From IMG/VR virus record IMGVR_UViG_2713896784_000026: a stretch of 7,004 nt of DNA, one strand, 5' to 3'. Positions 3,362 through 7,004 of this stretch are shown piece after piece. The DNA comes from a virus. Its lineage: Duplodnaviria > Heunggongvirae > Uroviricota > Caudoviricetes. A program made the position numbers and the translations under genes. Position 1 is the first letter of the stretch, and the number at the start of each line of letters is the position of its first letter. The notes below the pieces were generated by a model. The model saw only the letters and a list, made by a program, of their open reading frames with translations. It ran no database searches and was not told the origin of the DNA.

Positions 3362-3640
3362 TTAGGGAAACTGGCGTCTTGCGTGGATCACGTTTACTAC
3401 TTCAACGCTTGATGTTGTTACGCGGTATAGAATTATATAGTTAGGGTGGGCTACAATCTCACGCAAGCCAGGTACTCTGTCGCTTGGTGGGTATAAATAC
3501 GGATGTTCGGATAACGGCAGCACACAACCCCTTAATCGCTGCCATAAGCGTTCAGCCGCATCTATGTCGAAACGAGCAATATAACTAGTTATATCATCTA
3601 GGTCGGTATCTGCGCTTTCAAGCCATAACACGGGTAACAT
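3362..3640 (-). CDS. parE2: ParE-family type II toxin (92 aa; ParE2-like)
   Basis: The translation from the internal ATG at 3640..3638 (MLPVLWLESADTDLDDITSYIARFDIDAAERLWQRL...YIILYRVTTSSVEVVNVIHARRQFP) has the RelE/ParE-fold pattern. That ATG lies 1 nt after the TAA of the upstream antitoxin gene, indicating coupling. The 124-aa track ORF from 3736 would overlap the antitoxin gene out of frame and is rejected. Confidence 0.85.
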   Translation of the reverse strand: MLPVLWLESADTDLDDITSYIARFDIDAAERLWQRLRGCVLPLSEHPYLYPPSDRVPGLREIVAHPNYIILYRVTTSSVEVVNVIHARRQFP

Positions 3641-3641
3641 T

Positions 3642-3833
3642 TTACTGCTTGCTCCGTTCCTTGCGCATCTTAGCAAAGCGTTCTGCCATTCTGCGCTCAA
3701 CTTCGTCATGGGGAATTGCTGGGCGCGGATCTGCAAGGCTCGTTGCTACTTTCGCACGCAGCCATTCGTTGTAACTGTTTTCTTGTTCAATGGTTTCAAA
3801 TTCAGAAACCATTGGTGAAAGGGCTCTATTCAT
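3642..3833 (-). CDS. paaA2: Small highly charged antitoxin (63 aa), PaaA2-like partner of ParE
   Basis: ATG at 3833..3831 preceded by a strong SD (minus-strand reading CCGGAGGAAACATG). The product MNRALSPMVSEFETIEQENSYNEWLRAKVATSLADPRPAIPHDEVERRMAERFAKMRKERSKQ is 63 aa, matching the length I recall for PaaA2. Sits immediately upstream of parE. The track's longer 81-aa form lacks an SD. Confidence 0.75.
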   Translation of the reverse strand: MNRALSPMVSEFETIEQENSYNEWLRAKVATSLADPRPAIPHDEVERRMAERFAKMRKERSKQ

Positions 3834-3853
3834 GTTTCCTCCGGTTTTATAAC

Positions 3854-4225
3854 TCAGGCGCGGCGGCATTTTTGCGCCGCAATCCATCTCGCTATGAGAT
3901 CTTCCATTGATTCTTTTTTCTGCTTTAACTCGCTGATTATCTGGCGTTGCTCATCCTCAGGGAAGGCTGAAAAAATCTGCAATAATTCCAGTTGATTAGA
4001 CGTTAACCCTGCATGTGGTGGAGAACCCCCCGGTTGTTCTGCGTATTCCGCATCCAGATACCCTTCCGGCATCCCGTATGTTTGCTCTATTCTTCTGGCA
4101 GCCTTTTCTCCAAACGAGGCTCTCCCACTCATTAGTTGAGATAGGTAGCTCTTCTCTTTGGGTGGCAGAGTTTTATCTTTAAACCACTCCTTGAGACGTA
4201 AACGGCGAATTTCTTTTTTTTGCAT
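3854..4225 (-). CDS. paaR2: HTH (Cro/CI-type) transcriptional regulator, PaaR2-like; occupies the prophage repressor (CI-equivalent) position and is first gene of the TA operon
   Basis: N-terminal HTH (KSYLSQLMSGRASFGEKAARRIEQTYGMPEGYLD). The C-terminal part resembles DicA-type repressors (SNQLELLQIFSAFPEDEQRQIISEL). Divergent from the Cro-like gene. Start placed at ATG 4225..4223 (123 aa): the GTG at 4288 used by the track would extend the protein across the operator region. There is no SD before 4225, consistent with a leaderless mRNA. Confidence 0.7.
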   Translation of the reverse strand: MQKKEIRRLRLKEWFKDKTLPPKEKSYLSQLMSGRASFGEKAARRIEQTYGMPEGYLDAEYAEQPGGSPPHAGLTSNQLELLQIFSAFPEDEQRQIISELKQKKESMEDLIARWIAAQKCRRA

Positions 4226-4322
4226 GTGGTAATTATCTTTAGTAATCACTAAACAAGCAAATACTTGACTTAATGGTTTATTAAACACTAAACTCGCAAA
4301 AAAACACTAAACCGAGGAAGGT
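4226..4322. promoter_or_regulatory. Divergent promoter/operator region between the repressor-like gene and the Cro-like gene
   Basis: Three 18-bp sites with conserved right half ...CACTAAAC: 4237..4254 CTTTAGTAATCACTAAAC, 4276..4293 GTTTATTAAACACTAAAC, 4295..4312 (right half only). Rightward promoter: -35 TTGACT 4265..4270, -10 TAAACT 4289..4294, then SD GAGGA 4314..4318 and ATG 4323. Leftward promoter: -35 TTGCTT (complement of 4255..4260), 17-bp spacer, -10 GATAAT (complement of 4232..4237), which puts the start about at the ATG at 4225. Confidence 0.55.
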
Positions 4323-4625
4323 ATGACATTAAAAGAGTTTATTAAATCATTAAGGGTTGGTGATGCTAAGAAATTCGCGGCCAGACTTGGTGTATCGCCA
4401 TCTTACTTATCGCAAATGGCGTCTGGACGAACAGCTATATCTCCAACCCGCGCCCTTATGATCGAATCTGCGACGGAAGGCCAAGTAAGTAGGGCGGAGC
4501 TACGACCCCATGATTGGGAGCTTATTTGGCCTGAGTATGCGAGCGGCATTCGTTTGGGGCAAACACATGTAGTTCATGCTGAAGGTGATTGTAGTGCATG
4601 CTTATCTGATGGAGTTGATTCATGA
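4323..4625 (+). CDS. ydaS: Cro-like HTH protein, YdaS family (100 aa)
   Basis: SD GAGGA 5 nt upstream of ATG 4323. HTH with recognition-helix motif SPSYLSQMASGR, close to that of the divergent regulator. Its TGA overlaps the next ATG (ATGA at 4622..4625). Confidence 0.8.
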   Translation: MTLKEFIKSLRVGDAKKFAARLGVSPSYLSQMASGRTAISPTRALMIESATEGQVSRAELRPHDWELIWPEYASGIRLGQTHVVHAEGDCSACLSDGVDS

Positions 4626-5014
4626 AAATCAAGCATGAACACATCCGCATGGCGATGAATGTCTGGGCGCATCCGGACGGCGAAAAAGTACCGGCTGCGA
4701 AAATTACCAAAGCGTATTTCGAGCNNNNNNNNNNNNNNNNNNNNNNNNNNNNNNNNNNNNNNNNNNNNNNNNNNGATAAAGACACCCCTGATGCTGTTGA
4801 AAAAATGCAGGCTCTGTTACCGGCGATCGAAAAGGCGATGCCGCCTTTGCTGGTGGCCCGTATGCGCAGCCACAGTTCTGAATATTACCGTGAGATCGTC
4901 GAACGGAGGGATCGGCTGGTGAAGGATGTCGATGATTTTGTTGCGTCAGCGGTTGTTTTGTATGACCAGATGAATCGCGGCGGCCCGGCAGGGAATGCTG
5001 TGGTGATGCACTAA
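4622..5014 (+). CDS. ydaT: YdaT-like protein (130 codons; proposed CII-like regulator / toxic when overexpressed); internal 50 bases are masked N
   Basis: MKIKHEHIRMAMNVWAHPDGEKVPAAKITKAYFE...; translationally coupled to the ydaS-like gene. The frame is continuous across the N run only if the masked length is true to the original. Confidence 0.65.
   Translation: MKIKHEHIRMAMNVWAHPDGEKVPAAKITKAYFEXXXXXXXXXXXXXXXXXDKDTPDAVEKMQALLPAIEKAMPPLLVARMRSHSSEYYREIVERRDRLVKDVDDFVASAVVLYDQMNRGGPAGNAVVMH
4725..4774. other. Run of 50 ambiguous bases (N) inside the ydaT-like gene
   Basis: Read directly. Confidence 1.
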
Positions 5015-5036
5015 AAGCACGGTGTTCGGGGGTTTT

Positions 5037-5999
5037 ATGAGCAGCAAGCTTCATGGTCTTGTCTGGGAAGGGTGCGCCTTCACCGGCATGATCTTATCCA
5101 GGGTGGCGGTTATGGCCCGTCTTGCAGACTACAGCAATGACGAGGGCGTGTCATGGCCTGCCATTGAAACTATCCGGCGTCAGATCGGTGCAAGAAGTGA
5201 ATCCACAGTGAAATCGGCTATTGCAGAACTGGCGAAAGAGGGCTGGCTGACGAAGGAAGAGCGTAAGGTCGGTGGGCGTAATGTAAGCAATATCTATCGG
5301 CTTAATGTGGAAAAACTCGAAGCAGCTGCTGCGGCGGCGCGTGAGTCATATAAACCGAAAAGAAAAATTAGCCCGGCAAAAAATGACCCGTTAACAGTTG
5401 CCCCGTCAAATATTGCCCCCTCAACGGTTGACCCGTCAAATTTTGATGGATCAACTGTTGATAACAAACTGCCGATTAGGGGGGCGATGATTGACCCCGA
5501 TCCGTCAGTATTAAAACCTGATCCGTCAGATAAAAGATCTTCTTGTCCGGACGCTTCGCAACCGGACCCGCAGACGGCTGAACAGAATTTTTTAACCCGA
5601 CACCCTGACGCGGTTGTGTTCAGTGCGAAAAAACGCCAGTGGGGAAGTCAGGAAGATTTGGTGTGCGCACAGTGGATCTGGGGACGAATCGTGAGTCTTT
5701 ACGAGCAGGCGGCCAGCGATGATGGCGAGATCACGAGACCGAAAGAACCCAACTGGACTGCATGGGCCAATGACGTGCGGACAATGCGGATGCTGGATGG
5801 CAGAACTCACAGACAAATTTGTGAAATGTTTGGGCGTCTCCAGCGGGATTCGTTCTGGGTAAAAAACATCATGAGTCCGGCAAAACTCCGGGAAAAATGG
5901 GATGAACTGGTTATCCGCCTGGGGCGTTCGCCCGCGCAGCGTTGCGTGAATCACATTTCTGAACCGGACACTGAAATACCGCCGGGATTCAGGGGGTGA
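5037..5999 (+). CDS. Phage replication initiation protein (lambda O-like): N-terminal wHTH DNA-binding domain, repetitive Pro/Ser linker, C-terminal domain
   Basis: ATG 5037 preceded by GGGGG with a 4-nt spacer; the track starts at GTG 5022. The N-terminus (RLADYSNDEGVSWPAIETIRRQIGARSESTVKSAIAELAKEGWL) is typical of replication-initiator HTH domains. It sits immediately upstream of the DnaC-like gene, as in lambdoid replication modules. Confidence 0.7.
   Translation: MSSKLHGLVWEGCAFTGMILSRVAVMARLADYSNDEGVSWPAIETIRRQIGARSESTVKSAIAELAKEGWLTKEERKVGGRNVSNIYRLNVEKLEAAAAAARESYKPKRKISPAKNDPLTVAPSNIAPSTVDPSNFDGSTVDNKLPIRGAMIDPDPSVLKPDPSDKRSSCPDASQPDPQTAEQNFLTRHPDAVVFSAKKRQWGSQEDLVCAQWIWGRIVSLYEQAASDDGEITRPKEPNWTAWANDVRTMRMLDGRTHRQICEMFGRLQRDSFWVKNIMSPAKLREKWDELVIRLGRSPAQRCVNHISEPDTEIPPGFRG
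5386..5460 (+). repeat. Five tandem imperfect 15-bp repeats (consensus about aCCCgTCAAnnnTTG) inside the O-like gene; candidate iterons or coding linker repeats
   Basis: acccgttaacagttg / ccccgtcaaatattg / ccccctcaacggttg / acccgtcaaattttg / atggatcaactgttg. They are followed by two copies of GATCCGTCAG (5499..5508 and 5520..5529) in a more AT-rich stretch. Confidence 0.7.
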
Positions 6000-6005
6000 C
6001 GTGTC

Positions 6006-6746
6006 ATGAAAAACATTGCGGCAGTTGGGGTTCTTGAACGTATTCGCAGACTTGCACCACAGGGGGCGGTTCCACCGTACCGGACGGTGGAGGAGTGGCG
6101 GGAATGGCAACTTGCTGAAGGACGAAAACGCAGCGAGGAGATTAACCGCCTGAATCATCAGGTGCGGGTTGAAAAAATCCTGAACCGTGCGGGCATCCAG
6201 CCGCTTCACAGGAAGTGCTCATTCGGGAACTACCGGGTGCAGAACGACGGTCAGCGCCATGCTCTGAGCCAGGCGAAATCCATTGCCGATGAATTGATGA
6301 CCGGATGTACAAACTTCGTGTTCAGCGGTAAACCTGGTACCGGTAAAAATCACCTGGCAGCAGCGATTGGCAATCGGCTGATGGCGAAGGGGAGAAGCGT
6401 GATTATCGTCACCGTGTCCGATGTCATGAGCGTGTTGCATGACGGCTACGACAACGGCCAGTCCGGGGAAAAATTTTTACAGGAGCTTTGTGGAGTTGAC
6501 CTTCTGGTCCTTGATGAAATTGGCATGCAGCGGGATACGCGCAACGAGCAGGTCACGCTGAACCAGATAGTCGACCGCAGAACGGCTTCGATGCGTAGTG
6601 TCGGAATGCTGACGAACCTGAATCACGCAGCGATGAGCACACTCCTCGGAGATCGGGTGATGGACCGTATGACCATGAATGGTGGTCGTTGGGTGAATTT
6701 TAACTGGGAGAGCTGGCGGTCAAACGTTGGACGTCAGGGTATGTGA
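6006..6746 (+). CDS. DnaC-like replicative helicase loader (IstB-like AAA+ ATPase), 246 aa
   Basis: Walker A GKPGTGKNHLAAAIG and Walker B LLVLDEIG. Begins 7 nt after the O-like stop. Same length and position as the Rac prophage ydaV gene as far as I recall. Confidence 0.85.
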   Translation: MKNIAAVGVLERIRRLAPQGAVPPYRTVEEWREWQLAEGRKRSEEINRLNHQVRVEKILNRAGIQPLHRKCSFGNYRVQNDGQRHALSQAKSIADELMTGCTNFVFSGKPGTGKNHLAAAIGNRLMAKGRSVIIVTVSDVMSVLHDGYDNGQSGEKFLQELCGVDLLVLDEIGMQRDTRNEQVTLNQIVDRRTASMRSVGMLTNLNHAAMSTLLGDRVMDRMTMNGGRWVNFNWESWRSNVGRQGM

Positions 6747-6771
6747 GAATTTTTGACGAGGTAAATTTTCG

Positions 6772-7004
6772 ATGGAAACTGTATTGCATGCACTGAAAGC
6801 GATGGGAAAAGCCAATTCTGTTGAACTGGCGGCGCGGCTTGATATCAGCCGTGAAGAAGTTCTTAACGAACTGTGGGAACTCAAAAAAATGGCGTTGTTG
6901 ATAAAACGGGTCACACCTGGTTTCTGGCTGTCGAAGGTGAAGCCGGGGTAACCGAAGGGCAGGCACTACAACCTGAAGCGCCGGATGTGGTAACCGAAGA
7001 GGTC
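6772..7004 (+). pseudogene. Winged-helix DNA-binding protein gene with reading frame broken at an A7 run (6883..6889); continues past the right edge
   Basis: From ATG 6772 the frame encodes a clean HTH ([39 protein letters not shown]) but continues with rare codons (TTG TTG ATA AAA CGG) to a stop at 6949. The -1 frame after the A-run has good codons and a plausible wing ([24 protein letters not shown]...) and stays open to 7004. Not in the ORF track (below its length cut-off or truncated). Confidence 0.45.

Follow-up and report, generated by a model that had tools for sequence, protein, structure and literature searches.

A predicted intragenic replication origin with its own 15-bp iterons in the initiator gene of the lambdoid prophage CP-933P/Sp12

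We analysed a 7,004-nucleotide stretch of viral DNA (IMG/VR virus record IMGVR_UViG_2713896784_000026; Caudoviricetes), hereafter called the window, which corresponds to CP-933P/Sp12, a cryptic lambdoid prophage of Escherichia coli O157:H7. Positions 5037-5999 of its plus strand carry an open reading frame (ORF) for a 320-amino-acid (aa) O-like replication initiator, recognised by its Pfam HTH_36 match, its PHROG 391 match and the domains of its AlphaFold2 model. Inside this gene an array of 15-bp repeats is followed by a conserved box that bears GATC sites. We consider it very likely that the segment from about 5367 to 5576 is the replication origin of prophages of the CP-933P/Sp12 type, situated, as in lambda and phi80, within the part of the prophage's own initiator gene that encodes a linker. 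The reading is based on the anatomy of the locus, homology, constraint at the DNA level, co-variation and DNA stability, and from these we infer binding, unwinding and loader recruitment; this particular copy may or may not still fire. Repeats, boxes and other DNA-level features are given below without a strand, and genes and coding regions with one where it was assigned.

The initiator is composed, in order, of a winged-helix N-terminal domain, a disordered linker, a C-terminal domain like that of lambda O and a tail like that of DnaT, and over its full length it matched PHROG 391, 'replication initiation O-like', with an E value of 3.6e-114. The N-terminal domain is encoded by positions 5037-5348 of the plus strand (aa 1-104), of which aa 25-71 matched Pfam HTH_36 (PF13730). 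In an AlphaFold2 model built from a 66-sequence alignment, aa 1-104 were confidently placed as a helix-turn-helix plus beta-wing, the linker at aa 109-168 had predicted local distance difference test (pLDDT) values below 50 and was thus predicted to be disordered, a helical C-terminal domain at aa 178-297 (positions 5568-5927, plus strand) was again confident, and the tail was disordered. Foldseek searches with the N-terminal domain model returned winged-helix dimers of ArsR, MarR and PadR, all of them weak matches (E of at least 2.7e-3). This domain is the presumed binder of the 15-bp repeats. The C-terminal half aligned by BLASTP with lambda O (34% identity, E 2e-25) and with phi80 gp15 (36% identity, E 4e-26).

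A PDB sequence search found no solved structure for the N- or the C-terminal domain; the tail alone was matched (2ru8, 6aep and 9zbt_D). This tail, AQRCVNHISEPDTEIPPGFRG, forms the last 21 residues of the initiator (positions 5934-5996, plus strand) and is almost the same as the very C-terminal end of E. coli DnaT. The same tail ends YdaU of the Rac prophage and ECs_1944 of the Sakai prophage Sp10, each of which is otherwise unrelated to the initiator and is followed by a DnaC-like gene. The occurrence of the DnaT C-terminal motif on HTH_36 proteins has already been reported by Brezellec et al. (PMC5509034). In E. coli, dnaT and dnaC lie in one operon, and the mechanism by which DnaT recruits DnaB/DnaC has been described as unknown (PMC13377028). 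The tail may be a docking peptide for loaders of the DnaC type.

At 5372-5461 Tandem Repeats Finder identified an array with a period of 15 bp and a super-period of 30 bp. Read in register, this putative iteron array consists of six head-to-tail units starting at 5372, 5387, 5402, 5417, 5432 and 5447 (CCCGGCAAAAAATGA, CCCGTTAACAGTTGC, CCCGTCAAATATTGC, CCCCTCAACGGTTGA, CCCGTCAAATTTTGA and TGGATCAACTGTTGA), with the consensus SSSS-TCAA-NNN-TTGA; the first unit, at 5372-5386 (GCAAAAAATGA), is weak. Register alignment and codon comparison revealed a seventh, degenerate unit at 5480-5494 (GGGG-GCGA-TGA-TTGA), which is perfect in the Edwardsiella and Erwinia relatives (GGGG-TCAA-TGG-TTGA). An initial annotation of the window had described five repeats at 5386-5460. 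These are real and are the five best units, but the description was one base out of register and lacked both the upstream and the seventh unit, and it did not mention that every unit contains an internal palindrome, TCAAnnnTTGA. The array was delimited by Tandem Repeats Finder together with a chance test, the register across seven lineages and a sequence logo. At a lag of 15, 50 of 75 positions in 5372-5461 matched, compared with 20.9 +/- 4.7 across all 90-bp windows and a maximum elsewhere of 37, and none of 300 codon shuffles of the gene reached the observed periodicity. Tandem Repeats Finder reported no second repeat array in the window. Homologous initiators vary in length in steps of 5 aa, each corresponding to one whole 15-bp unit.

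To the right of the array stand two copies of GATCCGTCAG, the first with its Dam site GATC at 5499-5508 and the second at 5520-5529, spaced 21 bp from start to start as the initial annotation had noted. The pair turned out to be part of a larger box that spans roughly 5493-5576 and recurs in relatives whose repeats differ; it is the most conserved DNA of the initiator gene and stays constant whatever the repeat type, and 20 diverged relatives retain GAT CCG TCA as a DNA sequence. Calculated by nearest-neighbour stability, the least stable 40 bp lie at 5505-5544 (-46.9 kcal/mol, compared with a mean of -56.8 +/- 3.4 kcal/mol), which rank first among the 2,189 positions in 4775-7004, and we propose this stretch as the unwinding element. 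It contains the third GATC (5536-5539) and the motif AAAAGATC, which continues as AAAAGATCTTCTTGTCCG to 5549. GATC sites beginning at 5499, 5520 and 5536 form a cluster of three in the unwinding region. The suggestion that this part of the gene is more AT-rich is correct in direction, with 38% GC in 5499-5540 compared with 52% for the whole gene, but the difference is only moderate. A short inverted repeat, GTCCGG-N11-CCGGAC, which was found by repeat search at 5545-5567 and is kept in most relatives, lies to the right of the AT-rich region; it also encodes a conserved peptide, CPDASQPD, and is near the junctions at which the other N- or C-terminal domains of relatives join (loci L167 and L168). 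The repeats and the GATC box span aa 112-178, and since AlphaFold2 places the linker at the positions that they encode, both encode protein that is predicted to be disordered.

In our reading, unwinding and loading at the predicted origin would take place at the box. Together with the T that precedes it, the second GATCCGTCAG reads TGATCCGTCA, which resembles the junction between repeat units, TGA-N4-TCA (for instance TGACCCGTCA at 5429), so the GATCCGTCAG copies may be extra initiator sites. A cluster of GATC sites in an unwinding region is a likeness to P1 oriR and oriC-like origins, and Dam and SeqA could possibly have a role here. More tentatively, and with considerable doubt, the twin GATCCGTCAG / AAAAGATCT box might be a distinct element common to all HTH_36-type O-like initiators whatever their iteron specificity, acting as an unwinding element that fires under the control of Dam methylation and SeqA, in the manner of oriC and P1 oriR, and perhaps adding two initiator sites of low specificity (TGA-N4-TCA). 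If this were true, firing of the prophage origin would depend on the methylation state of the host, and, because the box is also the joint of mosaic genes, the origin could stay intact when replication modules are exchanged.

The type of repeat co-varies with the type of N-terminal domain. Initiators with type A domains (MSSKLHGLVWEGCAF..., recognition helix S-T-V-K/S-S/A-A-I) have units of the form TCAAnnnTTGA-CCCn, and those with type B domains (MSTKLTGYVWDGCAA..., recognition helix S-T-V-R-T-A-I) have units of the form TCAAAATCTGAC-nCn. A type-specific initiator paired with its own iterons is the classical lambdoid pattern. Two mosaic relatives extend it. At locus L167, from E. coli MSB1_9D, the C-terminal domain is shared at 87% nucleotide identity from TTTCGTCCGG onward, the N-terminal domain is unrelated and has no Pfam match, and the place of the array is taken by five 23-bp palindromic repeats, CATCGGGTCAAAATGGCCCGATG, and then three 12-bp AT-rich repeats (1346-1461 of that locus). 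Conversely, phage LLS, which was isolated on E. coli K-12, combines an HTH_36 N-terminal domain of type B, four 15-bp units and a GATCCGTCAG...GATCCATCAG box with a different C-terminal domain (Phg_2220_C), and no DnaC gene comes after its initiator. These mosaics indicate that the N-terminal domain, the repeats and the box travel together, and that the joint with the C-terminal domain lies at or just after the box.

Some variation in these relatives was recorded in passing. L167 has no DnaC-like gene downstream of its initiator, and it has a reverse transcriptase gene of retron Ec67 in the vicinity. Among the E. coli alleles P0023, P0013 and P0016, some (265 aa) are without the whole stretch between a 'DPS' of the repeats and a 'DPS' of the box, and others (308 and 303 aa) are without one of the two box copies; by their sequence, these shortened alleles look like deletions between repeated CCGTCA motifs.

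We compared selection on DNA and on protein using homologous loci from bacterial contigs, at one genome per species, and from viral contigs, which yielded 73 distinct coding sequences for a codon alignment. Nineteen diverged representatives were drawn from Escherichia, Citrobacter, Edwardsiella, Erwinia, Morganella, Pantoea and Providencia. Across these, protein identity was lowest in the linker (0.25-0.63 for aa 101-180), and codon identity at positions with the same residue was 0.78-0.93 for aa 111-180, compared with 0.30-0.52 in both folded domains. The zone of synonymous-site constraint, aa 111-180, corresponds to positions 5367-5576 and sets the extent that we propose for the origin. Within the box (aa 153-178), pairwise third-position identity to the window was 0.80-0.96 for relatives at least 53% identical to the window protein, and just 0.44-0.54 for the four most distant relatives; the folded domains have about 0.3-0.5. 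The DNA pattern was kept through residue changes from Ser to Pro (TCA to CCA), from Ser to Leu (TCA to TTA) and from Asp to Glu or Gly. The comparison of synonymous with nonsynonymous conservation proposed in the initial annotation favours an origin, and the pattern named there as damaging to an origin, with DNA varying freely while the peptide repeat is preserved, is the opposite of what we observed.

Codon choice and the repeat logo have the same character. Of the Ser codons in the linker, 54% are TCA and 29% TCT, whereas these two make up 16% and 6% of those in the domains. At the Asp of the box motifs, the codon that generates GATC, namely GAT, is used in 39 of 40 instances; just upstream, GAC outnumbers GAT by 62 to 37. 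In a logo of 40 units from seven lineages, A7 and A8 were invariant, T13 was nearly so and positions 9-11 were free, with the limitation that units had been pre-selected for at least 6/8 matches to TCAA/TTGA, which inflates the information at those positions. Two of A7, A8 and T13 are third codon positions, and the shape of the logo, xCAAnnnTTGx, is that of a dyad and not of a 3-nt codon periodicity. An antisense ORF of 57 aa (5294-5467, minus strand) runs across the repeats, and its translation contains a similar repeated peptide (STVDPSKFDGSTVEG). We considered this ORF as a source of the constraint and rejected it: the most strongly conserved part, the box, is outside it, and the ORF most likely arises from the palindromic units themselves.

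The window array occupies a position equivalent to that of annotated iterons in lambda and phi80. The lambda record NC_001416 has four iterons annotated inside O (39034-39118), and the phi80 record JX871397 has four gp15 binding sites annotated inside gene 15, in each case just upstream of the stretch that codes for the C-terminal domain. To the right of the repeats all three share a motif, AAAAGAT(C/T), in the form of AAAAGATCTTCTTGTCCG in the window, AAAAGATCTTCGTCCG in phi80 and AAAAGATTATTCGTCAG in lambda. The lambda origin, like the predicted one, lies inside the initiator gene in a linker-coding stretch and has direct repeats with dyads and an easily melted region downstream. In lambda a palindrome comes after the AT-rich region that follows the iterons, and the short inverted repeat of the window may be its counterpart. 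The two initiators have homologous C-terminal domains. The lambda-like architecture that the initial annotation had proposed is supported by this homology and by the position of the repeats, whereas the N-terminal domain is not one of the lambda O family: lambda O has a Phage_rep_O (PF04492) domain, and the window protein HTH_36. Since both are winged-helix folds, the mode of action can be the same despite the different domain family. The systems also differ in that lambda has four 18-bp iterons spaced 20-24 bp apart and a P loader, whereas in the window the 15-bp units are contiguous and number six or seven, a twin GATCCGTCAG box is conserved and contains three Dam sites, the loader is of the DnaC/IstB type and the initiator ends in a DnaT-like tail.

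Phage phi80 has the same architecture, and its AAAAGATCTTCGTCCG is nearly identical to the window AAAAGATCTTCTTGTCCG; its cII analogue, upstream, is a YdaT homologue (PMC8630535). It differs from the window in its Phage_rep_O N-terminal domain, in iterons about 21 bp apart with another sequence and in a P-like loader (gene 14). Phages lambda, P22 and L each have their own iterons inside the O or 18 gene, and the study of phage L, which pairs initiator type with iterons in all three phages as we do here, placed the phage L origin by the same reasoning at six imprecise 11-bp repeats in gene 18 (PMC8022706). Unlike the window, P22 and L pair the initiator with a DnaB-type helicase (gene 12), and their repeat sequences are unrelated to ours.

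The ydaU-ydaV region of Rac resembles the window in its order of repressor, ydaS, ydaT, initiator and DnaC-like loader, and YdaU shares the tail ...IPPGFRG, the likeness being confined to its last 19 residues. YdaU otherwise has a DUF1376 N-terminal domain (Pfam), an unrelated middle part and no 15-bp array. Rac has a functional origin, oriJ (PMC3945230). We rejected a close relationship with YdaU and Sakai Sp10 ECs_1944, through which the window would be tied to the active origins of Rac or Sp10, as only the C-terminal tail is shared and neither has the 15-bp array. The position of oriJ at the sequence level was not found in the open-access literature, from which older oriJ work may be missing. 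At 3608-3640 of locus L002, Rac ydaU of E. coli K-12 contains GATAAAGATCTAAAAACAGATCCCCCCC, which is reminiscent of the window GATAAAAGATCT / GATCC box and which, by this resemblance, may be a lead to the position of oriJ.

Other origin-associated sites were searched for as well. An exact consensus DnaA box (TTTTCCACA) lies at 5306-5314 on the minus strand, 58 bp upstream of the array, and a box with one mismatch lies at 5456-5464, also on the minus strand; the exact box is absent from phage LLS, the relative compared, and the 14 DnaA-box matches of the whole window are at the chance level (13.8 expected). No IHF consensus occurs in the window. We read the predicted origin as an intragenic one of the lambda type in which the winged-helix domain is swapped, the iterons are 15-bp units of its own, the putative unwinding box is conserved and bears GATC sites, and the loader is of the DnaC type. 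As such it is an element of an expected kind, that is, a lambda-like build with a different DNA-binding domain and repeats of its own.

An alternative is that the segment serves some other function in cis, as an operator at which the initiator would repress its own gene or those downstream, a titration or incompatibility locus, or a recombination 'joint' between phage modules, and that the true origin lies elsewhere. Mosaic breakpoints do coincide exactly with the box (the start of matches is at query 478 or 511, and the junctions of L167 and L168 fall there), plasmid iterons also serve in autoregulation and copy control, and the exact DnaA box at 5306-5314 is outside the array. Against this, the site is positionally homologous to the experimentally defined origins of lambda and phi80, with which it has the right-arm motif in common, and the stretch of lowest duplex stability in the region overlaps the box. 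In 5000-6100 nothing resembling a promoter or terminator was found, no Rfam family matched at E <= 1 in 4300-7004, and the window has no further repeat array. Recent recombination alone would conserve all codon positions equally, and not third positions in particular or GAT in 39 of 40 box motifs. Moreover, roles in autoregulation, titration or joining are compatible with an origin and not opposed to it. Overall, we consider it improbable that such a function replaces that of an origin.

It is still less probable, indeed very improbable, that the repeats encode a flexible Pro/Ser-rich linker and nothing more, their DNA similarity being due to recent slippage or duplication with no role in cis. 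The 5-aa repeats do fall in a linker that is predicted to be disordered, and copy number varies by whole units, as it would after slippage. However, the peptide changes across genera while the DNA pattern is kept, and synonymous sites are more conserved in the linker than in the folded domains. A purely protein-level repeat predicts neither this synonymous conservation, nor the position-specific fixing of synonymous codons (TCA and TCT; GAT in the box compared with GAC upstream), nor an information profile that is dyad-symmetric and lacks 3-nt periodicity; recent slippage, for its part, cannot explain conservation among Edwardsiella, Erwinia, Morganella and E. coli. These comparisons have largely refuted the linker-only explanation, and all the computational tests that we ran favour an origin over it, in support of the prophage origin suggested in the initial annotation. 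That the repeats are instead binding sites for YdaT, which in CP-933P binds the inverted repeat TTGATTN6AATCAA with TTGA and TCAA half-sites (PMC9986795) that also occur in the repeats, has a negligible probability, as the sole operator match in the whole window at up to three mismatches is the operator OM at 4615-4632, with none in the repeats, and as the repeat type co-varies with the N-terminal domain of the initiator.

If the segment is an origin of the lambda type, it might work as follows. Dimers of the winged-helix N-terminal domain would bind the six or seven 15-bp units through their TCAAnnnTTGA palindromes, and may also bind the two TGA-N4-TCA-like GATCCGTCAG sites, all together forming a complex like the O-some. 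This complex would strain and open the adjoining conserved box at 5505-5544, the least stable stretch, with its three GATC sites. The lambda-O-like C-terminal domain and the DnaT-like tail would then recruit the DnaC-type loader (6006-6746) together with the host DnaB that it carries, and rightward transcription from the ydaS promoter would cross the site, as transcription from pR crosses the lambda origin.

Several points weigh against an origin at this site, or against the competence of this copy. We found in the open-access literature, from which older oriJ or P22 work may be missing, no experimentally mapped origin and no binding or replication experiment for this initiator type. Sp12 did not circularise, replicate or undergo packaging after mitomycin C treatment (PMC2669165), and the prophage is cryptic, with an integrase pseudogene. 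The AT-richness of the box is modest. The head-to-tail spacing of 15 bp is shorter than the 20-24 bp of lambda and phi80 and is off the helical repeat. Several units of this copy are off-consensus: two end in TTGC (5398-5401 and 5413-5416) and the seventh has GCGA. One of the TTGC ends is a change from TTGA relative to Sakai, so this copy may be weakened. The pre-selection of units for the logo counts on the same side. As to the mitomycin C result, the PaaR2 repressor of Sp12 is expected not to respond to SOS and the element cannot excise, so the result says little about whether the origin is competent.

The identity of the window was established from several matches. Over nucleotides 5022-5999 the window matches E. 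coli O157:H7 strain 17B6-2 at 100% identity, and the gene order of the window is that of the cryptic lambdoid prophage adjoining ynfA. The counterpart in strain Sakai is prophage Sp12, in which the initiator is ECs_2276 and the DnaC-type protein ECs_2275; over 4775-7004 the window differs from Sakai by a single base, at 5401. This base, C in the window and A in Sakai, is the final base of a repeat unit, where it changes TTGA to TTGC and Asp to Ala. The published YdaT operator OM of CP-933P (TTGATTCATGAAAATCAA) has one exact copy in the window, at 4615-4632 at the ydaS/ydaT junction, and the window is therefore CP-933P/Sp12. Runs of N mask 2147-2200 and 4725-4774, the latter inside ydaT.

Upstream of the initiator gene, a three-gene toxin-antitoxin module of ParE2, PaaA2 and PaaR2 (3362-4288, minus strand) stands where the cI repressor would be; PaaR2 itself (3854-4288, minus strand) had no Pfam match. 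The module is followed by a YdaS-like Cro gene (4323-4625) and the gene for YdaT, a CII analogue (4622-5014). Downstream of the initiator, the gene for the DnaC-type helicase loader occupies 6006-6746 on the plus strand; its product matched Pfam IstB_IS21, PHROG 50 'DnaC-like helicase loader' (E 1e-81) and NCBIfam PRK12377, and is near DnaC. Sp12 has been counted among the prophages with DnaC-type loaders (PMC2669165). A perfect TGA-N4-TCA palindrome (TGACGTGTCA) at 5997-6006 lies across the initiator stop codon, its last base being the one that opens the DnaC-like gene's start codon.

The initiator gene is labelled in RefSeq only as a 'helix-turn-helix domain-containing protein', and about 2,200 of 5,426 complete E. 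coli genomes have a match to it. While the general picture of lambdoid replication is unchanged, the analysis gives this replication module a concrete, testable candidate origin and provides for it a consensus iteron, a conserved box with GATC sites and the bounds of a minimal replicon. It offers an explanation for an odd peptide repeat, shaped by a DNA signal and not by the needs of the protein, and it would help to annotate the origins of lambdoid prophages and to predict incompatibility or cross-activation among the co-resident prophages of O157.

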